A stretch of 64,000 nucleotides of DNA, taken from assembly GCF_036650535.1 (NCBI RefSeq), contig NZ_JAVVZM010000008.1:16334-80333 (forward strand). The letters are read 5' to 3'. How positions within the stretch are numbered: position 1 is the stretch's first letter; each line of letters starts with the position of its first letter. Under the pieces are notes generated by a model. That model made no database searches, was not told where the DNA came from, and was given only the letters and a program-made list of their open reading frames with translations. The translations under genes were made by a program, and so were the position numbers. Shown piece by piece: positions 5,827-62,883 of the stretch. The DNA is from Chryseobacterium sp. (lineage in GTDB: Bacteria > Bacteroidota > Bacteroidia > Flavobacteriales > Weeksellaceae).

Positions 5827-6558
5827 TTGACAAAAGATATCAACCAAGTAACGCCCTACAATTCTGAATCTAGTAAAAAGAGTCAGGTAGAGGACATGTT
5901 CGACAACATTGCGCCTAAATACGATTTACTAAACCATGTATTGTCTATGAAAATAGATGTGCTTTGGAGAAATAAATTAGTAAAATGGATGAATCATGAT
6001 GCTCCAAAAGAAACATTGGATGTCGCTACAGGAACCGGTGATTTAGCCATTGCCGTAGAAAAAGGAACCGGTGCAAAAGTAGTGGGATTAGATTTGTCGC
6101 AACAAATGTTAAATGTTGGCATTATTAAAATAAAAAAACTTAATTTAGACGGCAAAATTTCCATGCAAAAGGGCGATGCAGAAAATTTACCTTTCGAGGA
6201 TAATAGATTTGATGCTGTTTCTGTTGCTTTTGGAGTGAGAAATTTTGAGAACCTTACCAAAGGTTTGGCAGAGCTGAGAAGAGTGGTTAAAGAAAATAAA
6301 AGTGTTTATATTCTTGAGTTTTCTAAAGTAGAGGGGTTTTTAGGTCCATTTTATATGTTTTATTTCAAAAACATATTGCCGGCAATCGGTAGATTGATAT
6401 CTAAAGACAATAGAGCATACAGTTATCTTCCCGATTCTGTAAATGCATTTCCGTTTGGTGAAAAGATGAGACAAATTCTTTTAGATACAGGATTTAAAAA
6501 AGTAGAATACAAAAAATTAAGTTTAGGTATAGCCACAATTTATAAAGCAACAAAATAA
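5827..6558 (+). CDS. ubiE: Demethylmenaquinone methyltransferase UbiE/MenG
   Basis: MFDNIAPKYDLLNHVLS, LDVATGTGD, FGVRN and ILEFS motifs. Confidence 0.95.
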   Translation: MTKDINQVTPYNSESSKKSQVEDMFDNIAPKYDLLNHVLSMKIDVLWRNKLVKWMNHDAPKETLDVATGTGDLAIAVEKGTGAKVVGLDLSQQMLNVGIIKIKKLNLDGKISMQKGDAENLPFEDNRFDAVSVAFGVRNFENLTKGLAELRRVVKENKSVYILEFSKVEGFLGPFYMFYFKNILPAIGRLISKDNRAYSYLPDSVNAFPFGEKMRQILLDTGFKKVEYKKLSLGIATIYKATK

Positions 6559-6561
6559 CCT

Positions 6562-7344
6562 ATGAATAAATTTCTATTAAAAGCTCTGGTTTTAACCTCA
6601 GTTAATATTGCATTCTTTGCAGATGCTCAATTTAGAACCCGTAACAGGATGGACAAGTTGGAAGACTTTGACCAAAAAACAGTCAGCTGGGGTTTCTATT
6701 TGAATGCAAATATGATAGACTACAAAATTGTGTTTGACCCTCGATACGGGATGTTTGAAAATCATAATCTTGTATCTTCTAAAGAAAGCACTAGCTTCGG
6801 AGCAGGTCTTATTGCCAAGTTTAGATTGAATGATTATTTAGACGTAAGAGTAGAGCCGGGTTTGCAGTTTGCTCAAAGAGAATTAACTTTTAATACAGAT
6901 ACTAATTCAATGTATAAGGATGGAAGTTTGACTAACGCTCCATTTATTCCTATCGCTTTAACAGATAAAGACAGAATAAGAGAAATTAAATCTACTTTAA
7001 TTGATATTCCTGTGATGTTAGAATTACACGGGCAAAGATGGTACAACTCAAGACCATATGTTGCAGCAGGGGTAAACTACATTGTTAATCTACAATCCAA
7101 TTCAGACTCTCCAGATGACAATATGCAGCAGGTTTTCAGATCTACAACGCATAATTTTGCTTGGTCTGCAGAAATGGGAATTCAGTTCTATTTTAATAAA
7201 TTTAAATTAACTCCAGCAGTAAGAGGAACATTCTTTATGAATAACGAGATGGTTGCGGATAACGCTACTACGCCTCCTTATTGGTCTGCAGCAGTTTCCA
7301 CATTGCAAACAAGAGCAATTATGTTTGTTTTGAAGTTTGAATAA
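6562..7344 (+). CDS. porT: Type IX secretion/gliding outer-membrane beta-barrel protein PorT/SprT
   Basis: Signal peptide then Q; WGFYL, LRVEPG, IDIPV beta-strands; C-terminal LKFE; conserved position after ubiE in Bacteroidota. Confidence 0.8.
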   Translation: MNKFLLKALVLTSVNIAFFADAQFRTRNRMDKLEDFDQKTVSWGFYLNANMIDYKIVFDPRYGMFENHNLVSSKESTSFGAGLIAKFRLNDYLDVRVEPGLQFAQRELTFNTDTNSMYKDGSLTNAPFIPIALTDKDRIREIKSTLIDIPVMLELHGQRWYNSRPYVAAGVNYIVNLQSNSDSPDDNMQQVFRSTTHNFAWSAEMGIQFYFNKFKLTPAVRGTFFMNNEMVADNATTPPYWSAAVSTLQTRAIMFVLKFE

Positions 7345-7363
7345 TATAATGTAAAATTAATAT

Positions 7364-7393
7364 AAAAAGGAGGTGCTTGGCATCTCCTTTTTT
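7364..7393 (+). terminator. Intrinsic terminator after porT
   Basis: AAAAAGGAGGTGC-TTG-GCATCTCCTTTTTT stem-loop with U-tract. Confidence 0.8.
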
Positions 7394-7481
7394 ATTTTTG
7401 TCAAAATATAGAGATTATTATTTTCGTCGGTACTAATATTTTCCTATTTTTGCTAATAGTTAGAAAATTTATAAACCTGAA

Positions 7482-7784
7482 ATGCTTCAAGAATTAGAAA
7501 ATAATTTTTCAGAAATAGAAAAAAAAATTTTGGGACTTCAAAAAAGCCATCAAAATTTATCTGAAAAATATTTAGAATTAAGTAAAGAGCATACTGAGCT
7601 GAAGGCGAAATATGATGAGGAAAGAAAAAAAAATCAGGTACTGGCAGAAGAACAGAAAAATATAAAATTGTATTCAGCAATATCAGGAAATCCTGAACAC
7701 AATAGACTCATGAAAAACCACATCAACCGATTGGTGAAAGAAGTAGACTTTTGTATTGCACAGCTTCAAAATAGTGGATTATAA
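7482..7784 (+). CDS. Coiled-coil protein, ZapB-like, co-transcribed with zapA
   Basis: 100 aa with heptad coiled-coil pattern; stop overlaps the zapA start by one base; TATTTTTG -7 box at 7445-7452. Confidence 0.7.
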   Translation: MLQELENNFSEIEKKILGLQKSHQNLSEKYLELSKEHTELKAKYDEERKKNQVLAEEQKNIKLYSAISGNPEHNRLMKNHINRLVKEVDFCIAQLQNSGL

Positions 7785-8071
7785 TGGAGGTAAGGAGAAT
7801 AACCATCAACATTGCAGGAAGAGTGTATCCGCTAAATGTACCCGCAGCAGAAGAAGAAACACTGCGTAAAGTGGGGAAGCAAATTGAAAATATGATTAAA
7901 GATTTTGAACAAAATTTTGATGTAAGAGATAAACAAGATGCTTTGGCAATGTGTGCCCTAAAATTGGGAACGAATGCAGAAGTAGTAGCTCTAAATCATG
8001 ATAAAAATATACAATCTACCAACGAAAGATTAGTGAAAATCAATCAGTCGCTGGATGATATAGGAAAATAG
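7784..8071 (+). CDS. zapA: Cell division protein ZapA
   Basis: ITINIAGRVYPL...EEETLRKVGKQI...DKQDALAMCAL pattern. Confidence 0.9.
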   Translation: MEVRRITINIAGRVYPLNVPAAEEETLRKVGKQIENMIKDFEQNFDVRDKQDALAMCALKLGTNAEVVALNHDKNIQSTNERLVKINQSLDDIGK

Positions 8072-8087
8072 AATTTTTTTCCGGAAA

Positions 8088-8256
8088 AACTGCCTACAGT
8101 AATTCTAACACATTAAGGTAAACTCAACACTAAACAATTAATGTTCGAAAGTCTTTTCAATGGCGTGCTGCATTACGCAGATTACAGAGAGAAGGAATCA
8201 GATCAAATCGTGGAGATCAGGAGTTTACTCTAAATCTATGAATTGCTGTGGGTTTT
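8088..8256 (+). ncRNA. ssrS: 6S RNA (flavobacterial type)
   Basis: About 170 nt between zapA and rny. CCUACAGUAAUUC (8093-8105) pairs fully with GAAUUGCUGUGGG (8240-8252), and GUAAACUC pairs with GAGUUUAC, giving a long rod with a central bulge. The position downstream of zapA is the known 6S synteny. Confidence 0.8.
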
Positions 8257-8297
8257 TTATTTTAAATTAACAAGACAATTAAAAACTCAATATATAT

Positions 8298-9866
8298 ATG
8301 ACAACAGCCATAATAGTAGGCGTTATTTGCTTAGTAATCGGTGCGGTAGCAGGGATGTTTTTCTCTAAAAGTTCACTGAATACAAAAGCTAAATTCATTG
8401 TAGATGATGCAAAAAAGAACGCTGAAAACCTTATAGAAAAAGCTAATGTACAAGCTGAATCCATAAAAAAAGAAAAGAACCTTCAGGCTAAAGAAAAATT
8501 CTTAGAACTAAAGTCACAGCATGATTCAGATATTCAGTCTCGCGAAAAGAAAATGCAGGATGCTGAAAAAAGAACGAAAGACAAAGAAAATAAGCTGAAT
8601 GACGAACTTAGCAAAGCTGGAAAATTAGAAAAGGATTTAGACAGACAAATCGCTGATTATGCTAAGAAAAATGAAATTTTAGAGAAAAAGCAAAACGACT
8701 TGGAGCAGGCAACTGCTAAAAAAGTTGAAGTGCTGGAGAAAATTTCAAACTATACGGCAGAAGAAGCCAAAGCTGAATTGGTAGAAACCATGAGAGCAGA
8801 GGCTAAAACCAGAGCTCAGGCGCACGTTCAGAGCATTATGGAAGAAGCTCAATTGAATGCTAAAAGTGAGGCAAGAAAGATTGTTATTCAGACGATTCAG
8901 AGAATTGGTACCGAACAGGCAATTGAAAACTCAGTTTCGGTATTTAATATTGAATCTGATGAAGTAAAAGGTAGAATTATCGGTAGAGAAGGTAGAAACA
9001 TCCGTGCTTTAGAAGCAATGACTGGTGTAGAAATCATCGTTGATGATACTCCTGAAGCGATTCTTCTTTCATGTTTCGATCCGGTAAGAAGAGAGATTGC
9101 TAGACTATCACTTCACAGATTGGTTACAGACGGTAGAATTCACCCTGCAAGAATTGAAGAAGTTGTAGAAAAAACAAGAAAACAAATCGAAGAAGAAATT
9201 ATCGAAGTTGGTAAAAGAACCATTATCGATTTAGGAATTCACGGTTTGCATCCTGAATTGGTGAAGATCGTTGGTAGAATGAAATACCGTTCTTCTTACG
9301 GTCAAAACCTTTTACAGCACTCAAGAGAAGTTGCCAACATTGCTGCAACGATGGCTGCTGAATTAGGATTAAACGTAAAACTAGCGAAAAGAGCAGGTCT
9401 TTTACACGATATCGGTAAAGTTCCTGAGCAGGAATCTGAGCTTCCACACGCATTGTTAGGAATGCAGTGGGCTGAAAAATATGGTGAAAATGCAGAAGTT
9501 ATTAACGCTATCGGTGCTCACCACGACGAAGTAGAAATGACCTCTTTATTATCTCCAATCATTCAGGTTGCCGATGCAATTTCAGGAGCAAGACCTGGAG
9601 CAAGAAGACAGGTTTTAGAATCTTACATCCAAAGACTAAAAGATCTTGAAGCTGCAGCTTTAAGCTTTGAAGGAGTTTCTTCAGCGTATGCAATTCAGGC
9701 GGGTAGAGAATTAAGAGTAATGGTAGAAAGCAGTAGAATAAACGACGAAATGTCTTCTCAGCTTTCTTATGATATTTCTGAGAAAATTCAAAACGAATTA
9801 ACATACCCGGGACAAGTAAAAGTTACGGTAATCAGAGAAACCAGAACGGTAAATATCGCGAGATAA
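8298..9866 (+). CDS. rny: Ribonuclease Y
   Basis: N-terminal TM helix, coiled coil, KH domain ([13 protein letters not shown]), HD domain (LLHDIGK), C-terminal [10 protein letters not shown]. Confidence 0.98.
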
Positions 9867-9889
9867 TATAATTGTTCATCAATAATACG

Positions 9890-9923
9890 AAAGACCTTTC
9901 AAGAAATTGAAAGGTCTTTTTTT
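9890..9923 (+). terminator. Intrinsic terminator after rny
   Basis: AAAGACCTTTCAA-GAAA-TTGAAAGGTCTTTTTTT. Confidence 0.85.
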
Positions 9924-10035
9924 GAAGATTCATTAAGATTAAGTTGTTTTTATGAACTCTTTTGTTTAAATTAAAATTTATGTGAATATTTGATAATACT
10001 TATTATTTTATGGTGATTTATTTATAAATAATATT

Positions 10036-10043
10036 TAAATTTG
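10036..10043 (+). promoter_or_regulatory. -7 promoter element (TAAATTTG) of peptide gene 1
   Basis: Exact TAnnTTTG, 32 nt upstream of the ATG at 10076. Confidence 0.6.
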
Positions 10044-10075
10044 GTGACCAAACTATAATTTAAAAAACTAATCAC

Positions 10076-10264
10076 ATGACAAACATTTTGAAAAACGCGA
10101 AAAAATTAAAGCAAGCTGACCTTAAAAACATCGTAGGAGGAGTAAGTGGAAACCCTGATCTTTCTCTTTGTGGATGCGATTGCGCAGGAGCTGTTACAGG
10201 TCCTTTATACTGTGGAAATTATATCGGTTGTCTACAAGTGTATACTTGCAAAGACGTATATTAA
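10076..10264 (+). CDS. Bacteriocin-like/RiPP-like precursor 1: double-Gly leader plus 6-Cys core
   Basis: Leader MTNILKNAKKLKQADLKNIVGG; core C-x-C-x-C-x9-C-x5-C-x5-C; own promoter and terminator; paralog immediately downstream. Confidence 0.8.
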   Translation: MTNILKNAKKLKQADLKNIVGGVSGNPDLSLCGCDCAGAVTGPLYCGNYIGCLQVYTCKDVY

Positions 10265-10274
10265 TTTAGATATT

Positions 10275-10319
10275 AAAATAAAAAGTCTGCCTCAATTTTG
10301 AGGTAGACTCTTTATTTTT
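10275..10319 (+). terminator. Intrinsic terminator after peptide 1
   Basis: AGTCTGCCTCA-ATTT-TGAGGTAGACT stem with A-rich and U-rich flanks. Confidence 0.75.
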
Positions 10320-10406
10320 CAATGCTATATTTTATTGATATTCTAGTTATAAATACTATTTAAATTTAATCATCAAACTATATTTTTTAATTAAAAAACA
10401 AATCAC

Positions 10407-10598
10407 ATGACAAACATTTTGAAAAACGCGAAAAAATTAAAACAAGCTGATCTTAAAAACATCGTTGGAGGAATTAAAGGAGGAAAGCCTGATTTATCTC
10501 TTTGTGGATGCAGCTGCTCAGGATCTGTTACAGGCCCAGAATATTGCCCCCAATACATTGCTTGCCCACAAGTGTATACTTGCAACGAAGCATACTAG
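10407..10598 (+). CDS. Bacteriocin-like/RiPP-like precursor 2: double-Gly leader plus 6-Cys core
   Basis: Identical 22-aa leader (3 synonymous changes) and identical Cys spacing to peptide 1, with a diverged core. Confidence 0.8.
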   Translation: MTNILKNAKKLKQADLKNIVGGIKGGKPDLSLCGCSCSGSVTGPEYCPQYIACPQVYTCNEAY

Positions 10599-10607
10599 AA
10601 AGCTATT

Positions 10608-10651
10608 AAAATAAAAAAATCTGTCTCACAATTGAGGCGGATTTTTTATTT
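10608..10651. terminator. Terminator between peptide 2 and the convergent thioesterase
   Basis: AATCTGTCTCA-CAAT-TGAGGCGGATT stem, homologous to the peptide 1 terminator. Confidence 0.75.
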
Positions 10652-10687
10652 ACTTTCAAATTTATATTTGTAGTTATGTTTACTCAT

Positions 10688-11155
10688 CTACAAAAAGGGT
10701 TTCATTTCATCCTCAATCTGCGTTCTTAAATCCATTAATCGTTTAGCGTACTTTTCCTGTTGTTTTTCTTCTTCAGTTTCAGGAATCCATTTCGGAACGG
10801 GGAGTTTTTTACCATTTTCATCTACGGCTACAAATACAATAATGCAATGCGTTTTCTTATCGAAAGTAGGCTGTTTCAAATTTCTTGAGAAAACATTGAT
10901 TGAAATATGCATACTCGAAGAACCTGTATAGATTACCTGTGCTTCTACTTTTACAATTTCTCCGATTTTAATTGGTTCGTAGAAACGGATTCCACCCACA
11001 TAAACTGTCACAGAATAATTTCCACTCCATGTTGTTGCGCATGCGTATCCGGCTTGGTCAATCCACTTCATTACACTTCCGCCGTGTACATTTCCGCCGT
11101 AATTTACATCTGAAGGTTCTGAAATAAACTGAAAAGTAACAGGTTTGTTATCCAT
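10688..11155 (-). CDS. Acyl-CoA thioesterase (hot-dog fold, YciA-like)
   Basis: DVNYGGNVHGGSVMKWIDQAG motif. Confidence 0.92.
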   Translation of the reverse strand: MDNKPVTFQFISEPSDVNYGGNVHGGSVMKWIDQAGYACATTWSGNYSVTVYVGGIRFYEPIKIGEIVKVEAQVIYTGSSSMHISINVFSRNLKQPTFDKKTHCIIVFVAVDENGKKLPVPKWIPETEEEKQQEKYAKRLMDLRTQIEDEMKPFL

Positions 11156-11686: not shown

Positions 11687-11719
11687 AAACCTCACAGGTT
11701 TTTAAAACTTGTGAGGTTT
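11687..11719. repeat. Short palindrome AAACCTCACAGGTTTTTAAAACTTGTGAGGTTT (REP-like; may act as terminator)
   Basis: Near-perfect inverted repeat read directly from the sequence. Confidence 0.7.
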
Positions 11720-11796
11720 TTTTTGTGCGCTTCATCCAAAAAGAGTTTTAGAATTTTAACAGCTTATTCGGAATAAAAGTAAAAGTTGTTTGTTTC

Positions 11797-11960
11797 CAAA
11801 CAAACTGTGGGAAACAAAATACAATTGCAGGAAGTCTTAAACAGATTGTGGGAAACAAAATGAGATCGCAGGAAGTTTCAAATCAACTGTAGGAAACAAA
11901 ACACAGTTGACGGAAGTCACAAAACGAGTGTTTTGCAACCAAATAACTTTTACGGAAACT
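11797..11960. repeat. Degenerate 41-bp tandem repeat (20+21-bp subunits), about 3.5 copies
   Basis: TGT(G/A)GGAAACAAAA at 11806, 11847 and 11888; GGAA cores at 11810, 11830, 11851, 11871, 11892 and 11912. Confidence 0.75.
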
Positions 11961-12000
11961 ATGAATCGAGGAGAAGTAAAGTATAATTGACTGAGGTTTA

Positions 12001-12057
12001 GCCCCGATTGTAGTGGAAATCCTTTTTTGCAAAAAAAGATTGCAACGGAAAGCGGGA
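12001..12057. repeat. REP-like structured intergenic element GCCCCG...ATCCTTTTTTGCAAAAAAAGATT...GCGGGA
   Basis: Nested inverted repeats (CCCG/CGGG outer, T-tract/A-tract inner). Confidence 0.55.
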
Positions 12058-12127
12058 ATAGCTCCTAAAAAACAACCGCTTCATCAATAATGATAAAGCG
12101 GTTTTTCTATATTTAAAGAATATTCGA

Positions 12128-24366: not shown

Positions 24367-24500
24367 TTTTAAGTCTTAATTATACATACAAATATATTTT
24401 TAAATAATCAATATGGGAATATTTTTTTATGAAAATAAAATATGAGACCTTTGTTGTCCTCCTAAAAAGACTCACTAATAGAATTAATCAGGGCATAAAA

Positions 24501-25955
24501 ATGAACGAAAATTTAATGATGATATGGCAGAAGTGCCTTCAGTTTATGCGTGACAATCTTAACGCAGCTGAAGATAATTCTGATCTTAAAAAACTTGAAA
24601 AATCTTTCGATTTACTATTCGACAAAATACAACCAATTTCATTGGTTGATAATAATCTTACGTTGATGGTACCGAGTGATTTTTACAAGGAATATATTGA
24701 AGATAATTATCTATCATTGCTTTCCGCTGCCCTAAAAAAAAATATTGGTAAAGGGGTAAAACTTTGGTATTCGGTAATGGAAAATAAACCAAGTGGTTTA
24801 GAAAAACCAGTTACCATGAATATGAAAGGGAAATCTGTTCCTACACCGAAAGTTCAAGAGACTATGCCTCAGGGATTTTCTGGGAATATTGTAAATCCTT
24901 TTGTTGTTCCGGGAATCAAAAAAGTAAATATTGATTCTAATCTTAAAGCAGATTTTTCTTTTGATAACTATGTAGAAGGGGAGAGCAATAAATTTGCTTC
25001 TACGGTTGCTAGATCAATCGCTAAAAGACCTGGAGCAACTGCTTTTAACCCTTTGTTCTTATACGGAGGTTATGGAGTTGGTAAAACACACTTAGGTCAA
25101 GCTGTAGGTCTGGAAGTAAAAAGTCAGTTTCCTGATAAAGTAGTTCTTTATTTATCTTCAGAAAAATTCATTCAACAGTTTATTTCTGCTGCAAAAGCTC
25201 ATAAACAAACCGAGTTTGCCAACTTTTATCAAATGGTAGACGTTCTGATTATTGATGATATTCAGTTCTTGTCTGGAAAATCAGCTACTCAGGATAGTTT
25301 TTTCCATATTTTTGATTATTTGCATCAAAATGGAAAGCAGATCATCCTTACTTCTGATAAGGCTCCGGTTGATATTATGGATATTCAGGACAGGATTGTT
25401 TCCCGTTTCAAATGGGGACTTTCTGCAGAAATTAAATCTCCAGATTTAAATACACGTAAACAGATTATTCAGGCTAAATTAAGCAGAGACGGTATCGTTC
25501 TTACTGATGATATGCTTGATTTCCTTGCTGCAGAAGCAAAAACCAATGTAAGAGAATTAATTGGTATCATTAATTCTGTTATCGCTTATTCTACGATTTA
25601 TAAATCAGATTTAAGTTTAGAATTATTAAAAGAAACCATCAGTAAAATTGCAGCTAACCAGAAAAAGGTCATCAATATTCCTTATATTCAGGATGTAGTT
25701 TGTGATTATTTCGGAATTAAAAAAGAGCAGCTTTTATCTAAAACAAGAAAAAGAGAAATTGCACTTCCAAGACAATTGGCAATGTATTTTTCAAAAGAAT
25801 ATACGAATGCTACTTTTAGCAAAATTGGTGAAGAAATGGGTGGTAAAGACCATTCAACGGTAATGTACGCTTGCGATACCATTAAAGATGTTTCTAAAAT
25901 CGATAAGGAAATAAAAAAATACGTAAAAGATTTAACGGAAAAAATCAAGAATTAA
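24501..25955 (+). CDS. dnaA: Chromosomal replication initiator DnaA
   Basis: NPLFLYGGYGVGKTHL, IDDIQF, RIVSRFKWGL, NVREL, PRQLAMY and GGKDHSTV motifs. Start placed at the ATG at 24501 (MNENLMMIW). Confidence 0.98.
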   Translation: MNENLMMIWQKCLQFMRDNLNAAEDNSDLKKLEKSFDLLFDKIQPISLVDNNLTLMVPSDFYKEYIEDNYLSLLSAALKKNIGKGVKLWYSVMENKPSGLEKPVTMNMKGKSVPTPKVQETMPQGFSGNIVNPFVVPGIKKVNIDSNLKADFSFDNYVEGESNKFASTVARSIAKRPGATAFNPLFLYGGYGVGKTHLGQAVGLEVKSQFPDKVVLYLSSEKFIQQFISAAKAHKQTEFANFYQMVDVLIIDDIQFLSGKSATQDSFFHIFDYLHQNGKQIILTSDKAPVDIMDIQDRIVSRFKWGLSAEIKSPDLNTRKQIIQAKLSRDGIVLTDDMLDFLAAEAKTNVRELIGIINSVIAYSTIYKSDLSLELLKETISKIAANQKKVINIPYIQDVVCDYFGIKKEQLLSKTRKREIALPRQLAMYFSKEYTNATFSKIGEEMGGKDHSTVMYACDTIKDVSKIDKEIKKYVKDLTEKIKN

Positions 25956-28984: not shown

Positions 28985-29836
28985 ATGGATAAAATGAATG
29001 CTTTAGAAAAGTTCGGAGTTGATGTTTTTACGCAACACAATATTTTCGAAAGAATATCTGTGGATAAACCCTTCCGTCCGGATAATCCTGCTTTTATCTT
29101 TATTAAAAGCGGGTCTATAAAACTTCGTCAACATTTTAATGATCTTGAGCTTACGGCAAATACGTTCATGGTAACAGATCCGCAAACGGTTTATGAGATG
29201 ATCTCTGTGAGTGATGATTTCCAGTCGAGAATGGTTTCTTATAAGCGTGAATTTATTTCTGCTTTATCATTGAAATTCAATAGGTTAATTACTTATCGGT
29301 ATTTCCGTCAGCAAATGAATGTGGGGGTTCCTTTTTCTAAAGATGATTTAGATTTAATTTGGAAAAGCGTCAATTTTTTAAAATCTATCTTAGATTCTGA
29401 AACTGAAATGACTTACAAAAAAGAGATCGTAGAGCATCTTTTTTCAGTTTTTTGTTATCAGATTGCTGGAATTATTTCTAATGAAGACAACAGCGCAATG
29501 AATCAAATGTCGAGACAGGAAGAAATTGTTTTTGTTTTTCTAAATGATCTCTCGTCTCATCATTTGAATAACAGAACGGTGGAGTTTTATGCCGAGCGGC
29601 AGTCGATTACAACCAGACATCTTTCATCAGTAGTAAAATCGGTGACAGGAAGGTCAGCAAGCCAAATCATTGCTTCTATAGTTATCAATGAAGCAAAAGT
29701 GTATTTGAACTCTTCTAAAATGCCTGTTTCAGAGATTTCTACAATCCTTGGTTTTAGTGACCAATATTCATTTTCACACTTTTTTAAGAAACATTTAGAG
29801 CTGAGCCCGAGTCAGTACAGACAACAATATCAATAA
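28985..29836 (+). CDS. AraC-family transcriptional regulator
   Basis: C-terminal double HTH (VEFYAERQSITTRHLS...LGFSDQYSFSHFFKK). Confidence 0.93.
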   Translation: MDKMNALEKFGVDVFTQHNIFERISVDKPFRPDNPAFIFIKSGSIKLRQHFNDLELTANTFMVTDPQTVYEMISVSDDFQSRMVSYKREFISALSLKFNRLITYRYFRQQMNVGVPFSKDDLDLIWKSVNFLKSILDSETEMTYKKEIVEHLFSVFCYQIAGIISNEDNSAMNQMSRQEEIVFVFLNDLSSHHLNNRTVEFYAERQSITTRHLSSVVKSVTGRSASQIIASIVINEAKVYLNSSKMPVSEISTILGFSDQYSFSHFFKKHLELSPSQYRQQYQ

Positions 29837-29928
29837 CCAAATCCTACATTTGAACATCTTTTTCCAAAATTCAAACATTTGTTTGAACCTATGCTTCGCC
29901 TAACTTTGCATCTGTAAAGAAAGGTAAA

Positions 29929-31239
29929 ATGGTAAAAAACATAAAAACAGCTCTATCAGTTCTGATAGGTCTTTTTCCTGCGCTGTTTTTTTCACAAGAA
30001 ATAAAACAGATGACAGTGGATGAAGTTGCCCAATTGGCAATTCAAAATCATCAGCAACTTAAAGTTTCAGCTCAGAATATCGATATTGCAAAACAGCAGA
30101 AAGATATTACCAAGCTTCAGAAACTTCCTACAATTACAGCATCTACAAGCCAATTTTATTTGGGAAATGTAATTGCAATCGATAAAGATTTTTCCAATTC
30201 AACCACGATTCCGATGCCGCATTACGGAAGTTCGTATGGTGTTCAGGCGACTCAACTCATTTTCAAAGGAGGATTGGTGAATAAATCTATCGAGTTGGCA
30301 GGACTTCGTGAGCAGCTTTCAGAATTAGATTTTCAGAGTAGAAAACAGGATATCAAGTTTTTGGTGATTTCTAATTATTTAGATATTTATAAAATTTTAA
30401 ATCAGGAAGTTGTTATTCAAAACAATAAAAAGCTGGCTCAGGAAAGGCTGAAAAATATTCAGAAGTTTTATCAGCAAGGAATGGTCACCAGAAATGAAGT
30501 GATTCGTGGTGAATTGGCGATTAAAAATTTAGACCAAGGAATGTTAACCTTAGTCAATAACAGAAAGATCCTCAATTATAATTTGAATATCGCTTTAGGA
30601 TTAAATTCCGAAACTCAAATTATTCCCGTAGAAAATTTAGGCAATAAAGAAACCGGAATCGGCATGGATTATTATCTGAATTTAGCTCATGATAGCAATC
30701 CACAAATGAAATCTGCAAAAACAAATATTGCTGTTGCCGATAAAAATTTAGATGTTATTAAAACTGATAAAATGCCGACACTTTCAGGTTTTGGAGGATA
30801 TACTTTGCAAAGACCAATTACAACAAGAAACCCTGTTTTGGATATGTATTCGAGCGGTTGGCAAGGCGGTGTTTCTTTGAGTTATAATATTGATAATTTA
30901 TATAAAACCAAAGAAAAAGTGAAGCTTGGTGAACTGCAGAAAAACCAGGCAAATGATGCAATGACTTTGGTGCAACAGAATCTTGATATGACAGTGAATG
31001 CAGCGTACACAAAATATCAGGAAGCGATTCAGCAAACTGCAATTCTGAATGATGCTAAAAGTTTGGCAGAAGAAAACTACAAAATTACAGAAGCTAAATA
31101 TCTTAATCAACTGGCTGTACAAGCTGAGATGATTGATGCACAACTTCAAAAAATACAGTCGGAATTGGATTTGGCAAATGCAGAAATCAATATTCTATAT
31201 CAATATTATAATCTGTTGAAATCAACAGGAACGCTTTAG
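29929..31239 (+). CDS. TolC-family outer-membrane efflux protein
   Basis: Signal peptide, two OEP-like repeats; TAACTTTG -7 box at 29901-29908. Confidence 0.92.
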   Translation: MVKNIKTALSVLIGLFPALFFSQEIKQMTVDEVAQLAIQNHQQLKVSAQNIDIAKQQKDITKLQKLPTITASTSQFYLGNVIAIDKDFSNSTTIPMPHYGSSYGVQATQLIFKGGLVNKSIELAGLREQLSELDFQSRKQDIKFLVISNYLDIYKILNQEVVIQNNKKLAQERLKNIQKFYQQGMVTRNEVIRGELAIKNLDQGMLTLVNNRKILNYNLNIALGLNSETQIIPVENLGNKETGIGMDYYLNLAHDSNPQMKSAKTNIAVADKNLDVIKTDKMPTLSGFGGYTLQRPITTRNPVLDMYSSGWQGGVSLSYNIDNLYKTKEKVKLGELQKNQANDAMTLVQQNLDMTVNAAYTKYQEAIQQTAILNDAKSLAEENYKITEAKYLNQLAVQAEMIDAQLQKIQSELDLANAEINILYQYYNLLKSTGTL

Positions 31240-31260
31240 CAATTTTTAATTATAGAAAAA

Positions 31261-31421
31261 TTTAAACGCAAAGTTTTAAGATTCATGAAAATAAATAAAG
31301 TGGGCAAAGATGAATCAACAAGTTGATTTTATAAAGCTCCTGCATAAGCTTTGCGAAGCAAATTTATTTGCCTTTGCAGACTTAAAATCTCATGTCTTAG
31401 AATAAAATCTTTGCGTTTAAA
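31261..31421. repeat. ~160-bp palindromic dispersed element, copy 1
   Basis: TTTAAACGCAAAG ... CTTTGCGTTTAAA termini; internal core shared with 38553-38715. Confidence 0.75.
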
Positions 31422-31528
31422 AAATCAAAACAGAAATCTTTTTTAAGTGAAACGGCTTTGTGAAAATTAAAAAGCATTTAATAATAAAAACTCTGTGAAC
31501 TTCGTGTTCAAAAACATACATCAAAACA

Positions 31529-32635
31529 ATGGAAAACATGGAACAAAATACTCAAGATACACAACCTGCAGTTTCAAATGCAGAAGCTAAGAAAAAACAA
31601 AATAAAAAGAATAAAATAAGAGCCATCCTTTCAAATATCATCGTTTTTCTGGTGATTGGTTTGGGTTTATTCTGGCTAATTCGTGAATACTTTCATATTG
31701 GTGATAAAACGTATACCGAAGCTGCTCAAGTGGAGGAATTTATTAATCCAATCAACACAAGAGTTTCGGCTTATATCAAGGAAATTAGATTCATCGAACA
31801 TCAACAGGTAAAAAAAGGTGATACTTTGGTGATTTTAGATAAGAGAGAAATTCTTACTCAATTGGGTCAGGCTGAAGCGGCTTATCAAAATGCTTTAGCG
31901 CAAAAAACAGCAACAAGTTCATCGGTAAACACGGTTTCGAACAACGTAAGTGTTATGGAATCTAATATTGCCGGAGCAAAAGCCAGACTTTGGAATGCCG
32001 AACAGAATTTAAACCGATACAAAAATCTTTTAGCTTCAGAAGCAGTTACAAAACAACAATTTGACCAGGTGAAAACAGAATATGATGCTCAAAAAGCGGC
32101 GTATGAAACCTTGGTTAATCAGAAGCAGACGGCCAATCTTTCTACAACTGAAGTAAAAAGCAAATTAGGAATTAACGATGCGGAAATCAAAAGAACAAAA
32201 TCTGCATTGGAAATGGCTAAAATCAATCTTTCTTATACCGTAATTACTGCGCCTTACGACGGAGTAATGGGAAGAAGATTGATTGCTGAAGGACAACTGA
32301 TTCAACCAGGGCAACAAGTAGGAACAATCGTTTTGAATAATCAAAAATGGGTAACCGCAAACTTTTTAGAAAGTCAAATGCCCAATATTAAGATAGGACA
32401 AAAAATGAAAATGACAGCCGATGCTTTAGGTAAAAAAGAATTTGAAGGTACAGTAACGGCGGTCTCTGCAGCTACGGGTTCTAGATATTCAAGTGTTCCG
32501 ACAGATAACTCTACCGGTAACTTCATAAAAGTACAGCAGAGAATTCCGGTAAGAATTGAGTTTACAGCATCCAATAAAAAGGAAGATATCGCTAAGCTTA
32601 GTGCAGGGATGAATATGAATGTTTCAATTAATTAA
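31529..32635 (+). CDS. HlyD-family (EmrA-like) membrane fusion protein
   Basis: TM anchor, lipoyl-like halves, hairpin, and ATGSRYS...NSTGNFIKVQQRIPVRI. Confidence 0.94.
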   Translation: MENMEQNTQDTQPAVSNAEAKKKQNKKNKIRAILSNIIVFLVIGLGLFWLIREYFHIGDKTYTEAAQVEEFINPINTRVSAYIKEIRFIEHQQVKKGDTLVILDKREILTQLGQAEAAYQNALAQKTATSSSVNTVSNNVSVMESNIAGAKARLWNAEQNLNRYKNLLASEAVTKQQFDQVKTEYDAQKAAYETLVNQKQTANLSTTEVKSKLGINDAEIKRTKSALEMAKINLSYTVITAPYDGVMGRRLIAEGQLIQPGQQVGTIVLNNQKWVTANFLESQMPNIKIGQKMKMTADALGKKEFEGTVTAVSAATGSRYSSVPTDNSTGNFIKVQQRIPVRIEFTASNKKEDIAKLSAGMNMNVSIN

Positions 32636-32650
32636 AATTAACGACTAAAA

Positions 32651-32737
32651 GATTTCAGATATCAGATTCCAGACTTGGTGTATGAAAAAATGAAGAATGC
32701 TGGAAATCTGATGTCTAATATCTGAAATCTAATATCT
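32651..32737. repeat. Heptad-repeat hairpin (ATTTCAG/ATATCAG ... ATCTGAT/ATCTGAA)
   Basis: 7-bp periodic arms that are reverse complements of each other, between hlyD and the MFS gene. Confidence 0.65.
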
Positions 32738-32745
32738 ATAAAAAA

Positions 32746-34338
32746 ATGTATAACAAAGGTCTTTTCAGCGATTGGGTTCCAAAGCCTGTTCAGCTGTTAC
32801 TTATAGTTTTGATGCTTGTGGTCGTAATGCCTTTAGGAGGTGTTTATGCTGGGAATATCAGCTTTATGACGAGCGGAACCGGTCATCTTACTGAATATTT
32901 TATGTGGGCAAATTATGCCACAACTATTGGGATGGGAGCTTGTATGCCGGTTGTTCTCAGGTTCAAAATGAGATATAAAGTGCGTGATAAAGTGGTGCTT
33001 TTATTGGTGCTCTTAGGCTTGTTAAGTTACATCAATGGGACTACCATGGAACCTGCAATTATCATTGTAAGTGCTTTGGCTATTGGATTTTTAAAAATTA
33101 TGATCACCATCGAGCTTTTTCTTCCGTTGATGGTCATCATGGGTGGAAGAGGGGTTTTCTACGGTGTATTTTATACATTCGTTTTAACTTTGACGCAGAT
33201 CTCCGGTTACTATGCGGTAGAAATTTCGATGCTCTATAATTGGCAGCAGTTTTTCATCATTGCGTCACTACAGTGTTTTGCGATGGCTTTAATTTGCTGG
33301 ATTTTTATGCATAATAAATATTTTGCTTTAAAAGTTCCGTTGCATTATATCGATTGGCTGAGTATTCTTTTATTTGTTTCTACTTTCATGTTTTCGGCGT
33401 ATGTTTTTTCATTTGGAAAACAGCAGGATTGGTTGAATTCTACGAGAATTATCAATGCGAGTATTGCTGCGTTTGTTAGTTTTGCTTTGTTGGCAATTCG
33501 TCAAATGACCTTGAAAAGACCTTATTTGTCATTCAAAATTTTCAAGCGAAACAATGTTCAAAACGGATTGTTTTTACTGTTTTGTTTAGGAATGTTTTTA
33601 GGAACTGCTTCAATTCAGAATATTTTTTCAGTCGGAGTTTTAGGATATGACCAATTGACAAATGCTAAACTGAATTTAATGATGATTCCCGGATTAATTC
33701 TTGCCGGAATTGTCGCTGTTTATTGGTTTAAAAAAGAAAAGCCTCTCAAAATGTTCATCTTTTCAGGATTTTCTGCGATGATAGGGTATACCATTATTAT
33801 GTACTTTTCAATGGTGCTCGAATTCAATTATGAAAGTTGGTATTTGCCGATGTTTCTGAAAGGTTTTGGGATGGGATCGCTCTTTATTTCAGTGTGGTAT
33901 TATACTTTAGATAAGCTTGAACTCGATGATATGTTAGCTGCCATCGGATTGGTTTTGGTTTGGCGTACATTTCTTGCGGTAGGGTTTTTCTCAGCTTTAT
34001 TTTCGTGGTTTCAATATCAGTTTCAGATTGAAAGTTTAGGGAATTTAGCGGTTTATTTAGATGGAATGACGCTTACTTCACAAAATCTTTCAGCCAATTT
34101 AAAAAGTATTCAGCTTAATGCGATTCTTTCAGCCAACAAGAAAATTTCCGGTTACATCATTGTTGCAGGTTTTGGAATTTTACTGTTTGTTTTAACCCAT
34201 CATTTTGGGGAAGAAAAATTCAAATACCCAAGACTGATAAGACTCATCAGCGGAAAATCGGTCATTGCCAGAAGAAGATTACAAGAACGCAAAAGATTAT
34301 TAGAAGAAATAAAAGATGCGGCAGGACCTGTCATCTAA
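32746..34338 (+). CDS. MFS efflux transporter (EmrB-like, Bacteroidota type)
   Basis: About 14 hydrophobic segments; third gene of the tolC-hlyD-MFS cluster. Confidence 0.85.
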   Translation: MYNKGLFSDWVPKPVQLLLIVLMLVVVMPLGGVYAGNISFMTSGTGHLTEYFMWANYATTIGMGACMPVVLRFKMRYKVRDKVVLLLVLLGLLSYINGTTMEPAIIIVSALAIGFLKIMITIELFLPLMVIMGGRGVFYGVFYTFVLTLTQISGYYAVEISMLYNWQQFFIIASLQCFAMALICWIFMHNKYFALKVPLHYIDWLSILLFVSTFMFSAYVFSFGKQQDWLNSTRIINASIAAFVSFALLAIRQMTLKRPYLSFKIFKRNNVQNGLFLLFCLGMFLGTASIQNIFSVGVLGYDQLTNAKLNLMMIPGLILAGIVAVYWFKKEKPLKMFIFSGFSAMIGYTIIMYFSMVLEFNYESWYLPMFLKGFGMGSLFISVWYYTLDKLELDDMLAAIGLVLVWRTFLAVGFFSALFSWFQYQFQIESLGNLAVYLDGMTLTSQNLSANLKSIQLNAILSANKKISGYIIVAGFGILLFVLTHHFGEEKFKYPRLIRLISGKSVIARRRLQERKRLLEEIKDAAGPVI

Positions 34339-34496: not shown

Positions 34497-34540
34497 AAAA
34501 AAGAAAAGGCATTAGTTTAAACTAATGCCTTTTCTTTTTT
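34497..34540. terminator. Perfect 44-bp palindrome overlapping the methyltransferase stop; probable bidirectional terminator
   Basis: AAAAAAGAAAAGGCATTAGTTT|AAACTAATGCCTTTTCTTTTTT, two 22-bp arms with no mismatch. Confidence 0.75.
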
Positions 34541-35809
34541 GGTGATTTTTTCACAAAGAGTTATTCCTATTTTTTCTATAACTCCTACAACAAGTGCATT
34601 ACCCATAAAAAAAGCTCTTTTTGTATCTGTAATTCCGTTAAGTTTGGTATGTTCATCGGGAAACATATTTAGTCTTTCCAATTCAACGGGCGAGAGTCTT
34701 CTTAATCCTTTTGGAGTTTGAATAACATGCTTAAATCTGGAAGCAGACTTTCCTCCTTCTCCGGTAATAATAGTTCTTGACGGTTTGTCTAAAGGGTCTG
34801 GAAAAATCATTCCGCCTTCACTATAATTATATTCGAAGCCTTCAGCATTTTTACGGATTTCTTTTTTAGAACCTTTAAGGTAATTCCATTTATCCAAATC
34901 TTCAGCGTTAATGTAAAAGTCTTCAGTAATTTCTCCGTTTTGTATGATATCTTTTAAAACAATAGATTTTCCTTCGTAGCTTGGTTTTGTTTTGATGGTT
35001 GTGATTTTTCCATTAATCATCAATCCAGAATTTTCAAACAGACCTATCTTACCATTTTTATTAAAATTCTCTGATATTGAAACGATGTCTCCTACCAAGT
35101 CAAACTCTTTTGGAGATAAAGAGTTCTCTACAGTTACCGGAAAAGATGAAGCTAGAGTTCCATCTTCTAAAATCCATTCAATAGCCTTTGTTTTATTTAA
35201 ACTTTTATAAATATCAGTTCCTTTAAGATAAGCTAAAATGAAAATTCTTCTTCTTCTCTGAGGCATCCCAAAATCTGCAGCATTAATTACTCGCCATTCT
35301 ACAGCATATCCCAATTGGTCTAAGCTTTTTAAGATAATAGCAAAGTCTCTACCTCTTTGTGCTGATGGAGAAATTAAAAGTCGATCAACGTTTTCAAGAA
35401 ATAAATATTTGGGTTTGTTTTCTTTTTCTGAAAGTATTTTATGAATAGACCACCATAAGACACCTTTTTTTCCAATTAATCCTTTAGAGTTTTTCAAAGT
35501 TGTTGCAACTGAGTAATCTTGACAGGGGAAACCTCCAACCAATAAATCGTGGTCAGGAATATCTGAAATATCTACGGTTGCTATGTCTTGATTTGAATGA
35601 TGGCCTATACCAAAACGATTTTCGTAAACCGCAGATGCGTGTTGTACTTTTGTAGATGGTTCCCATTGATTACTCCAAACTACCTCATAATTTTTTTCTA
35701 GAGGATTTTTATAATTGGTAGATGAAGATTTTCCTTCCCAACCTTCTAGTCCCAGTCTGAAACCTCCAACGCCTGCAAAAAGCTCTACTACTTTTATCTT
35801 ATTTTTCAT
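34517..35809 (-). CDS. DNA (cytosine-5) methyltransferase, M.Sau3AI-like
   Basis: Motif I ELFAGVGGF, IV GGFPCQDYS, VI ENV, VIII QRRRR, X MGNALVV. NQWEP, ENVDRLL and QRGRDF segments recall M.Sau3AI (GATC). Confidence 0.93.
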   Translation of the reverse strand: MKNKIKVVELFAGVGGFRLGLEGWEGKSSSTNYKNPLEKNYEVVWSNQWEPSTKVQHASAVYENRFGIGHHSNQDIATVDISDIPDHDLLVGGFPCQDYSVATTLKNSKGLIGKKGVLWWSIHKILSEKENKPKYLFLENVDRLLISPSAQRGRDFAIILKSLDQLGYAVEWRVINAADFGMPQRRRRIFILAYLKGTDIYKSLNKTKAIEWILEDGTLASSFPVTVENSLSPKEFDLVGDIVSISENFNKNGKIGLFENSGLMINGKITTIKTKPSYEGKSIVLKDIIQNGEITEDFYINAEDLDKWNYLKGSKKEIRKNAEGFEYNYSEGGMIFPDPLDKPSRTIITGEGGKSASRFKHVIQTPKGLRRLSPVELERLNMFPDEHTKLNGITDTKRAFFMGNALVVGVIEKIGITLCEKITKKEKALV

Positions 35810-36125
35810 TGTTTACATTTTTTAAGTACTTAATTTTTTCTTCTGCAACTTTCAAAATACTTAAGTCTGCTTTTTCGTCCAAAATTTTATAAGCGATTTG
35901 GTCACTCAAAAAACTATTCAGTAAGTCTTGTTCATTACACTCAAAAAATACACCTAGTTGTTTTATAATTTGCTTTGTAGGAGGTCTTTCGTTACGCTCA
36001 ATTTTTGCAAGTAATGAAGTATCAATACAAATTTTTTCGGCCACACTTTTAAGTGTCATGCCTTTTTTTTCGCGTAAATTTCTAAGGTGTTCTCCAAAAG
36101 AAATTGTACTTTCAACCCTTTTCAT
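35799..36125 (-). CDS. XRE-family HTH regulator (controller-protein-like), stop overlapping the methyltransferase start
   Basis: FGEHLRNLREKKGMTLKSVAEKICIDTSLLAKIERNER HTH; 11-bp overlap with the MTase. Confidence 0.9.
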   Translation of the reverse strand: MKRVESTISFGEHLRNLREKKGMTLKSVAEKICIDTSLLAKIERNERPPTKQIIKQLGVFFECNEQDLLNSFLSDQIAYKILDEKADLSILKVAEEKIKYLKNVNNEK

Positions 36126-60172: not shown

Positions 60173-60930
60173 TATCTTGTGAAAACGAGTTTAGTACCTG
60201 TCGATTTTTCCTCATCAATTCTGTAGCCTTCATAGTTGAAAGCTTTCACATCATTCAAAGTTTTTGCATTGGTTTCTGCGCAAAATCTTACGACCAAGCC
60301 TCTTGCATGTTTTGTGTAGACAACGATTGTTTTCAGTTTTCCGTCTTTTATTTCATAAAAATCAAAATCGATAACCTGATGATTGAGTTTTTTCCGGTCA
60401 ACCACTTTTATATACTCGTTACTTGCCAAATTCAGAAGAATTTCGTTCTTTTTCATTTCAGAATTAAGTAATTCGGTCACTTTTTCTGTCCAGAATCCGT
60501 AAAGGTTTTTGTAATTGTCAAATTCAAATGGTCTTCCCATTTCAAGACGGTACAACATTACTTTGTCTGAAGGTTTCAACAAACCATACAGACCGGAAAG
60601 TATTCTATAGTTTTTCTGAAGATAATCAACCGCATTTTTGTCTAATGTTTTCGCATCCAAACCACGATATACTTCGCCTGTAAAAGCAAACATGGCGGGA
60701 GCAGATTCTTTTGCGGTAGGCTTAGATTTCCATTTTTGGTTTCTTTCCCAATTTTCGTCTGCTAATTTTGCCGAAATTTCCATTAATTCGGAAAGATATT
60801 TTGGCGATTTATGTTTTAAATGAGATTGAATGAATGCTGCTTCTTCAATGAATTTCGGGGTAGAAGTTCTCAATAGATCTGTTGAGTTTTCTATGTTCAT
60901 TAATTTTGCAGGAGAAGTTATGATTTTCAT
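60172..60930 (-). CDS. yaaA: Peroxide stress protein YaaA
   Basis: SPAK, FTGEVYRGL, LSGLYGLLKP, YRLEMG, NLASNEY and KHARG motifs. Confidence 0.96.
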   Translation of the reverse strand: MKIITSPAKLMNIENSTDLLRTSTPKFIEEAAFIQSHLKHKSPKYLSELMEISAKLADENWERNQKWKSKPTAKESAPAMFAFTGEVYRGLDAKTLDKNAVDYLQKNYRILSGLYGLLKPSDKVMLYRLEMGRPFEFDNYKNLYGFWTEKVTELLNSEMKKNEILLNLASNEYIKVVDRKKLNHQVIDFDFYEIKDGKLKTIVVYTKHARGLVVRFCAETNAKTLNDVKAFNYEGYRIDEEKSTGTKLVFTR

Positions 60931-61634
60931 AAGGTAAGTAAAGATAAATGTTTAGAATCAATAAAATTCATGACCATCATCGAGATAAAATCTATCATGA
61001 AATGGCAGATAATTAGAATTTTAATGTTTGAATATTTTTTATAAAATAAAGCAAATACAATCCCAATAAAAAAAGGAATTACAACCTGACCGATTGTTCC
61101 GTAAGTGCTGTGTAAAATGCCAAATAAAAGTGCTGAAACAACCACACCCAACATCGGACTGTTGTATATTTTTTCAATTCTTGGCTGAATATAAGCCCGC
61201 ATCAATAATTCTTCGATAACTCCATCGGTAAGACAAGTGAAAATGATGAGGAGATAATTATTGTTAAATAAAATTTTGAACTCTAGAAGTCTTTTGCTTG
61301 CTTTTTCTTCGGTTAAGAAAATAATAATTGCATTGAGAAAAGCTCCACCAAATACACAAATAAAGTATAAAGCGATTACAGCACCCAAATAAAATAAAGG
61401 GGGATACTTCTTTTCTTCCCAAATAAAGAATGACCTGTTTTCAATAAAAAAATTATAGACTACAACCAAAATTAAAATCAACCACAGAGAAAGTCTGTCG
61501 TAAAAAAAAAGATCAGCCGTTAAGGTTTTATAATTCAAAAATGAATTAATTGTCGGGATTGAAAATAGCATTGAAGCGGCAAGCAATACGAAAGTAAGGA
61601 TTATGCCTAAAGAATATCTTCCGTTAAGACTCAT
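60927..61634 (-). CDS. CPBP/Abi-family intramembrane glutamic endopeptidase
   Basis: EELLMR, FGILH and ICHF motifs. Confidence 0.9.
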   Translation of the reverse strand: MSLNGRYSLGIILTFVLLAASMLFSIPTINSFLNYKTLTADLFFYDRLSLWLILILVVVYNFFIENRSFFIWEEKKYPPLFYLGAVIALYFICVFGGAFLNAIIIFLTEEKASKRLLEFKILFNNNYLLIIFTCLTDGVIEELLMRAYIQPRIEKIYNSPMLGVVVSALLFGILHSTYGTIGQVVIPFFIGIVFALFYKKYSNIKILIICHFMIDFISMMVMNFIDSKHLSLLTL

Positions 61635-62359: not shown

Positions 62360-62432
<73 letters not shown>

Positions 62433-62471
62433 CTAAGCAAAGTGTTTTCGGTAAACACTATAAAGAAATAT

Positions 62472-62544
<73 letters not shown>

Positions 62545-62583
62545 CTAAGTATAACGTTTTCGGTAAGCGTTTTAAAAATATAC

Positions 62584-62656
<73 letters not shown>

Positions 62657-62695
62657 CTAAGCAAAGTGTTTTCGGTAAACACTATAAAGAAATAT

Positions 62696-62768
<73 letters not shown>

Positions 62769-62807
62769 CTAAGTATAACGTTTTCGGTAAGCGTTTTAAA
62801 AATATAC

Positions 62808-62883
<76 letters not shown>

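Follow-up and report, generated by a model that had tools for sequence, protein, structure and literature searches.

Two short tandem genes, here named pepA and pepB, lie among housekeeping genes of Chryseobacterium sp. and each encode a peptide with a leader ending in Gly-Gly and a core with six cysteines. What kind of peptide is made at this locus, and for which purpose? A preliminary description of the 64,000-nucleotide stretch of DNA analysed here (hereafter, the window) compared the pair with exported bacteriocins and RiPPs on the basis of a conserved leader joined to a variable core. We examined this comparison through the organization of the two genes, the distribution and selection of their homologues, the predicted structure of the core and the gene content of the surrounding loci.

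Organization and transcription of the tandem genes

A direct duplication of about 330 nt contains the two genes; its copies cover 10001-10263 and 10326-10597 and are spaced 325-334 nt apart (Table 1). The region had been read as two duplicated cassettes of promoter, gene and terminator, and a -7 box, an ORF and an intrinsic terminator were indeed found for each copy. Both precursors begin with the same 22-aa leader, MTNILKNAKKLKQADLKNIVGG, and a comparison of codons agrees with the earlier statement that the leaders end in IVGG and that the three differences between their DNA sequences (AAG/AAA, GAC/GAT, and GTA/GTT) are all synonymous. Between the cores, 12 differences are synonymous and 20 are not. 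The cores are 40 and 41 aa long, and the scaffold attributed to them is present in both, namely C-x-C-x-C-x9-C-x5-C-x5-C together with PDLSL, VTGP, and QVYTC. The pI is 4.0 for the pepA core and 4.7 for the pepB core. Predicted monoisotopic masses are 4127.75 Da (pepA) and 4297.82 Da (pepB) with three disulfides, and 4133.80 and 4303.87 Da, respectively, in the reduced form.

Table 1. Features of the pepA/pepB locus, with positions given in the window
Feature	Position	Strand	Remarks
rny (RNase Y)	8298..9866	+	Conserved upstream neighbour marking the syntenic site; terminator hairpin at 9890-9919
pepA -7 promoter box	10036..10043	+	Bacteroidetes sigma-A type, TAAATTTG; TAnnTTTG read from sequence, putative function
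pepA, 62-aa precursor	10076..10264	+	Leader 10076-10141 (22 aa, IVGG end), core 10142-10261 (40 aa, six Cys), stop 10262-10264
pepA intrinsic terminator	10284..10319	+	11-bp stem, followed by a T-run
pepB -7 promoter box	10361..10368	+	TAAATTTA; 7/8 match to TAnnTTTG; 325 nt from the pepA box, equal to the repeat spacing
pepB, 63-aa precursor	10407..10598	+	Leader 10407-10472, core 10473-10595 (41 aa, six Cys), stop 10596-10598
pepB intrinsic terminator	10614..10657	+	Terminator scan
4HBT-family thioesterase	10688..11155	-	Conserved downstream boundary of the syntenic site

Synonymous divergence between pepA and pepB is lower in the leader (dS 0.28) than in the core (dS 0.67). Gene conversion of the leader between the paralogues was considered on this ground and set aside, as the sites are too few for such a claim. 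A similar pattern is seen among paralogues within single genomes, where leader and 5' UTR DNA is 91-95% identical and the cores are about 76% identical (10060-10150 against 10391-10481 in the window; loci L008-L013). Judging from these few sites, the near-identity may reflect either gene conversion or selection on the 5' region of the mRNA.

A TAnnTTTG box is kept at the same distance upstream of most orthologues. The terminator scan returned four terminator-like sites in the region, against 0.3 expected from shuffles, and placed those of pepA and pepB at 10284-10309 and 10614-10647. As read from the sequence, pepA and pepB would each be transcribed from their own promoter and stopped at their own terminator, and metatranscriptome contigs support this organization. 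Near-identical contigs cover 10081-10253 (pepA) as well as 10167-10338 and 10334-10602 (pepA/pepB). In a fish-associated metatranscriptome run, the pepA contig was the sole contig with at least 97% identity in 20 kb, and in a freshwater run the peptide region was the deepest among contigs longer than about 150 nt. Such contigs support transcription of pepA and pepB weakly, since assembled contigs could include DNA. No isolate RNA-seq was found, and runs labelled with the host organism gave flat, DNA-like coverage or zero reads.

Family extent and genomic context

A search of 5.8 billion proteins recovered 110 homologous clusters with lengths of 56-84 aa, and in species-representative genomes 245 stretches were confirmed. 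Together with the strong purifying selection described below, these counts place pepA and pepB beyond chance. The clusters belong nearly all to Chryseobacterium, with some in Flavobacterium and Aquimarina, and carry the source labels 'hypothetical', 'Bacteriocin', or 'Natural product'; about 130 homologues from these three genera were compared. The family is narrow, as 1.84 billion representative proteins, searched exhaustively with a profile, yielded no more than 19 clusters at E<=1e-3. Two long profile matches, P0126 and P0127, were discarded as low-complexity noise. Pfam, PADLOC, and Rfam gave zero matches for the peptides or their region; the NCBIfam scan at E<=10 returned TIGR04149 as its sole match, with TIGR03973 absent. 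In the literature searched, for the core motif and for Chryseobacterium double-glycine peptides, no paper gives this motif or describes the family. The conserved six-Cys peptides form a family previously undescribed in Pfam, NCBIfam, the PDB, and the literature.

The genes flanking pepA and pepB are housekeeping genes, with zapA and rny upstream and a 4HBT thioesterase, an ArsC-family protein, gcvT, and a NUDIX hydrolase downstream. The presence of dnaA (24429-25955, + strand), 14 kb from the peptide genes, places the window in the replication-origin region of the chromosome. Peptides and flanks recur at 99-100% identity in Chryseobacterium sp. BGARF1 and GCA_036656035.1. Across the genus, rny lies upstream of the peptide gene(s) in all 80 Chryseobacterium loci that reach that far, the 4HBT thioesterase and the ArsC gene follow further downstream, and each locus carries one to three tandem copies. 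In most species, the interval between rny and the 4HBT gene additionally encodes an MFS transporter (65 loci), a ClC channel (54), a PF03601 membrane protein (50), LysR (47), and GLPGLI/Porph_ging (36); zero peptide-processing enzymes occur among the interval genes of other Chryseobacterium species. The clade of the window (L006-L013) is without this block of about 6 kb, and the peptide genes alone occupy the interval (9867-10687, compared with L016-L085). The MFS transporter was considered as a partner, given its upstream position in 65 of the 80 Chryseobacterium loci, but the window clade does not carry it. Nor is it homologous to the MFS protein beside a divergent family member, and the adjacency was judged coincidental.

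Other genera use different sites. The conserved site in Flavobacterium comprises a PLP Cys/Met enzyme, AsnC, one to four peptide genes, and a Pyr_redox dehydrogenase, and that in Aquimarina comprises 4HBT_2, the peptide, and MgtE. Divergent metagenomic members adjoin grpE/dnaJ, or gcvP and an MFS gene, or a membrane TPR-AraC regulator with a MATE pump and a Met-zincin. In the last of these contexts (L091, Ga0586931_0001163, 6044-9049), three tandem divergent members stand beside the membrane-anchored regulator, the pump, and the secreted Met-zincin. A sensor or regulator partner is hinted at in this context alone. Close to the copies in Flavobacterium and Aquimarina, the TPR proteins are of the plain type and lack an HTH domain, in contrast to the TPR-AraC protein of L091; a link through them was rejected as inconsistent.

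The lack of a nearby transporter, radical SAM enzyme, or lanthipeptide enzyme had already been noted, and Pfam annotation of nearly all window ORFs of at least 100 aa agrees: C39-peptidase ABC transporters, ABC ATPases, radical SAM enzymes, lanthipeptide enzymes, and YcaO are all absent from the 64 kb. Within about 10 kb, no ORF with ABC ATPase motifs was found in 95 loci (1.7 Mb) and a further 54 metagenome loci. Genes for rSAM/SPASM, LanB/C/M, YcaO, or MNIO proteins stand beside members in none of seven genomic contexts, and no immunity-like gene adjoins the peptide genes. The six-Cys family is an orphan at every locus examined (about 149), not just in the window. Some CPBP/Rce1-like proteins serve as bacteriocin immunity proteins; an intramembrane protease of this family (PF02517) is encoded at 60927-61634 on the - strand, 50 kb from the peptide genes, and a link with them was not seen.

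A leader of the double-glycine type

The leader residues of the window peptides (I-4, L-7, D-8, L-12, G-2, and G-1) correspond to the double-glycine consensus. The leaders show the properties by which this type is recognized, that is, a length of 15-30 aa, a GG, GA, or GS end, a hydrophobic side chain at -4, -7, and -12, and an acidic one at -8. The N-terminus of both precursors is hydrophilic and without a Sec-type hydrophobic region. TIGR04149, a model of Bacteroidota leaders, aligns mainly with the leader and scores 18.1 and 18.8 bits against the two precursors (E ~1e-3), below its curated cutoff of 25 bits.

Across the family, the leader is less uniform than in the window. Invariant positions are limited to L11 and G21, with I19 nearly invariant. 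Gly occupies position -2 in 127 of 127 members and position -1 in 92; the remaining members have Q (20), S (7), E (4), K (3), or A (1) there. The non-Gly residues at -1 are found mostly in Flavobacterium and Aquimarina. To our knowledge, S and A are the only ones among these substitutes that C39 peptidases tolerate. The consensus fit, the invariant Gly at -2, and the sub-threshold TIGR04149 match argue for the double-glycine type; the replacement of the second Gly in 35 of the 127 members argues against it.

The motif KNAKK[LF]x4[LF]KxIxGG, searched as a degenerate DNA pattern, had 71 matches in the JGI metagenome collection. Seventy of them precede this six-Cys core, and the remaining one is a chance match inside an esterase. 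The leader is specific to this six-Cys family, and not common to different cores. In the 64-kb window, no other ORF carries a leader of the double-glycine type.

Constraint on the core and predicted structure

Selection was assessed from pairwise differences among 107 distinct homologous coding sequences, with residues 28-59 taken as the core. Synonymous sites are saturated, with pS of about 0.65 in every segment. By comparison, pN amounts to 0.126 in the core, 0.204 in the leader, 0.29 in the linker after Gly-Gly, and 0.51 in the C-terminal tail. At the six Cys codons pN is 0, and TGT and TGC swap freely. Synonymous saturation, low pN, and unchanging Cys indicate a translated protein under purifying selection. 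The contrast of conserved leader and variable core holds for the two paralogues of the window only; family-wide it is reversed, the core having the lower pN. A core more constrained than its leader, a second Gly that is often replaced, an anionic product, a syntenic locus, and the lack of an immunity gene argue against a diversifying bacteriocin or RiPP, which that contrast had suggested.

Within the core, C33, G34, C35, C37, G39, V41, G43, P44, Y46, C47, C53, and C59 are invariant, and D29, L30, S31, L32, S36, T42, Y50, Q55, and V56 are nearly so. The Ser residues between the first three Cys can be replaced by D, A, or T, and substitution by these residues is seen at S36, S38, and S40. Variable hot-spots in tandem diverging paralogues are located at core positions 45, 48-49, 52, and 54. 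The predicted mature peptides are anionic or neutral, with a median net charge of -1 across the family.

That homologues should keep the Cys pattern was borne out, with all six Cys present in 118 of 127 sequences and most exceptions truncated or frameshifted. Two intact-looking variants retain four Cys: P0119 is without C37 and C59 (C3 and C6), and P0125 is without C35 and C53 (C2 and C5). This even, pairwise loss in two divergent sequences is a hint that fits disulfides I-IV, II-V, and III-VI. AlphaFold2 modelled the full precursor, from a 103-sequence alignment, with a mean pLDDT of 76 and about 89-91 over residues 31-50. For the core alone, the mean pLDDT was 82, with about 91-92 over core residues 11-30, and the predicted model is compact, with a small beta-hairpin and short helical turns. 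Foldseek returned zero matches in the PDB with either the full-length or the core-only model. Against PDB sequences, the family profile gave chance matches only (influenza haemagglutinin, E>=0.4).

Comparison with known peptide systems

Peptides exported by PCATs through a double-glycine leader share several properties with the present family, including a hydrophilic leader with I-4, L-7, D-8, L-12, G-2, and G-1, a core of about 40 aa, tandem paralogues, and no Sec signal. The family differs from them in that transporter, accessory, and immunity genes are absent from about 149 loci, conservation is higher in the core than in the leader, the peptides are anionic, the site is syntenic and core-genome-like, and the second Gly is not conserved. 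The pepA/pepB family is best placed among these putatively exported peptides with double-glycine leaders, with atypical evolutionary behaviour.

Bacteroidetocins, the class IIf peptides of Bacteroidales, come from the same phylum and likewise have a double-glycine leader and a Cys-containing, probably disulfide-bonded core. Their leaders measure 15-16 aa, and their cores of 42-48 aa carry 2-4 Cys and a charge of +2 to +6 (PMC6671954, PMC8546649). They target BamA (PMC6671954, PMC8546649), and at their loci a PCAT and a TM protein are always adjacent, usually with a thiol oxidoreductase as well (PMC6671954). In contrast, the peptides described here have a 22-aa leader, six Cys, a net charge of about -1 to -2, and no ancillary genes. 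Membership in class IIf was rejected, as leader length, Cys count, charge, and locus all disagree.

The rSAM-modified RiPPs of TIGR04149 (GG_sam_targ_CFB) have a similar leader and supply the sole HMM match. Nevertheless, the score remains below 25 bits, a neighbouring rSAM/SPASM maturase is absent, and the core is unrelated. SCIFF peptides of Clostridia, the 'six cysteines in forty-five residues' ranthipeptide precursors with an unknown or signalling function, resemble the family in six invariant Cys, a core of about 40 aa, and high conservation across genera. They are set apart by the absence here of a TIGR03973 match and of an adjacent radical SAM gene, and by differences in phylum, Cys spacing, and leader type. 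Knottins, in which the inhibitor cystine-knot pairing is I-IV, II-V, and III-VI, also have six Cys in about 30 residues, and the two 4-Cys variants hint at the same connectivity. However, the CxCxC spacing is atypical for them, a Foldseek match in the PDB is absent, and the connectivity is a hint from sequence.

Other classes were considered and rejected. Lanthipeptides and azole-containing peptides do not agree with the loci, where LanB/C/M/KC or YcaO was not found, nor with the variation of S36, S38, and S40 to D, A, and T. Metallothioneins have a very high Cys content, few aromatics, and CxC/CxxC clusters, whereas Cys makes up just six of about 40 core residues here, Tyr46 is invariant, Tyr50 is nearly invariant, Tyr57 belongs to the consensus, and a leader is present. 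The ChrA/ChrH MNIO RiPPs of Chryseobacterium, which end in a CPACGMG motif and have their enzymes encoded in a cluster, are unrelated.

Proposed role and alternative explanations

The explanation we lean towards, with confidence slightly above even, is that pepA and pepB encode leader-dependent, exported mini-proteins with three disulfides, which are processed in trans by a C39-peptidase ABC transporter and have a conserved genus-wide role other than that of a classical bacteriocin. In this mechanism, the 22-aa hydrophilic N-terminus would act as an export leader of the double-glycine type and not as a Sec signal. A C39 ABC transporter presumably encoded elsewhere in the genome would cut after Gly-Gly and export the core of about 40 aa. 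The core would then fold into a compact mini-protein with three putative disulfides, for which C1-C4, C2-C5, and C3-C6 would be the likeliest pairing. The product may work outside the cell throughout the genus, for example as a signal, an inhibitor, or a mini-protein that protects or handles metals, and not as a killing bacteriocin that varies between strains. The duplication of pepA and pepB would represent ordinary birth and death of tandem copies, of which other species carry one to three.

We infer cleavage, export, and disulfide bonding of the cores. Stronger constraint on the core than on the leader, a locus fixed in the genus, and the lack of an immunity gene make a conserved role likelier than strain-level antagonism. 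Together with the anionic core, the single syntenic housekeeping site, and the lack of transporter and modification genes, this purifying selection suggests a conserved molecular partner. Processing in trans by C39 transporters has been described as common for Bacteroidota peptides with double-glycine leaders (PMC8939145). Two observations count against the preferred explanation, namely that a C39 ABC transporter is absent from the window and from about 149 loci, and that Q, S, E, K, or A occupies position -1 in 35 of 127 members.

Alternatively, the genes could encode RiPP precursors whose Cys residues are modified by an enzyme located elsewhere, for example a thioether maturase of the TIGR04148/TIGR04149-type rSAM/SPASM kind, before the modified core is exported. 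The weak match to an 'rSAM-modified RiPP' model is the sole database signal and points in this direction, although the score lies under the cutoff and covers chiefly the leader. A conserved, Cys-rich core behind a less conserved leader also resembles ranthipeptide precursors of the SCIFF type. Bacteroidota precursors can sit apart from shared processing genes (PMC8939145), but rSAM, LanB/C/M, YcaO, or MNIO genes stand beside no member in the seven contexts. Moreover, lanthionine or azoline chemistry between the Cys residues is improbable given that the Ser residues there are replaceable by D, A, and T, and pairwise Cys loss suits disulfides better than links from Cys to acceptor residues. We regard RiPP precursors as unlikely. 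A comparably low probability is given to unmodified class II bacteriocins or microcin-like toxins of the bacteroidetocin kind, which would kill competitors and rely on an exporter and immunity encoded elsewhere. Against such toxins count a locus that is a fixed syntenic feature of the genus and not an accessory island, a core more conserved than the leader, and the lack of an adjacent immunity-like gene. The cores are anionic (median net charge -1, pI 4.0-4.7), whereas bacteroidetocins are cationic (+2 to +6), have leaders of 15-16 aa, and lie beside a PCAT, a TM protein, and a thiol oxidoreductase (PMC6671954). In favour of toxins are the double-glycine-type leader, the length of 40-41 aa, the Cys residues, the tandem paralogues diverging at core positions 45, 48-49, 52, and 54, and the label 'Bacteriocin' that some sources give to homologues.

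A further explanation dispenses with export and treats the products as small, uncleaved, Cys-rich intracellular proteins, for instance in metal or redox handling, with an N-terminal region that is not an export leader. It would accommodate the CxCxC motif with three more invariant Cys, the loci in which an exporter was not found, the replacement of the second Gly in 35 of 127 members, and the position of the Flavobacterium copies beside a pyridine-nucleotide disulfide oxidoreductase. Nonetheless, the N-terminus has the hydrophobic periodicity of a double-glycine leader, matches a leader model, and keeps an invariant Gly at -2. The core, with conserved aromatic and hydrophobic residues and just 15% Cys, is unlike metallothioneins, and the loss of Cys in pairs points to disulfides, bonds that would not be expected in the cytoplasm. 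An intracellular protein seems very improbable.

To return to the exported three-disulfide mini-protein, it is conceivable, though rather doubtful, that the family is a cystine-knot-like mini-protein of Flavobacteriales that is genus-wide, constitutively expressed, and exported, with a double-glycine leader, a shared transporter acting in trans, a new fold without a solved relative, and a physiological role. Candidate roles in that case include a conserved extracellular signal, an inhibitor of secreted proteases (its own or those of competitors), or a thiol- or metal-handling factor. Bacteroidota encode very many peptides with double-glycine leaders, of which few have a known role. The present family is unusual among them: its genes stay at a single chromosomal position throughout a genus, its six-Cys core hardly varies, and dedicated machinery is absent, a combination that suggests a conserved physiological function and not warfare. 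It is also a tractable target, as the cores can be synthesized, their predicted masses are known, and both Chryseobacterium and Flavobacterium are genetically accessible. The compact three-disulfide fold, if true, would be without a solved relative and could provide a new stable peptide scaffold.

Other features of the window

Several features at a distance from the peptide genes were recorded. A Flavo-1 RNA motif (Rfam RF01705), an orphan structured RNA of Flavobacteria, lies at 11996-12063 (+) in the intergenic region between the ArsC gene and gcvT, with 72 bits against a gathering threshold of 42. Three 41-nt tandem repeats (11794-11931) are placed immediately upstream of it, and a terminator-like palindrome (11687-11719) is located nearby. 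Further along, 28985-34338 (+) encodes in a row an AraC regulator, a TolC-like OEP, an HlyD-family adaptor, and a 530-aa protein without a Pfam match, which probably form a tripartite efflux operon with an unrecognised inner-membrane component. At 34517-36125 (-), a C-5 cytosine DNA methyltransferase of 430 aa overlaps a 108-aa ORF, and the two may constitute a restriction-modification or very-short-patch-repair pair. At 62360-62880 (+), five tRNA genes form an array with a spacing of about 112 nt from start to start.
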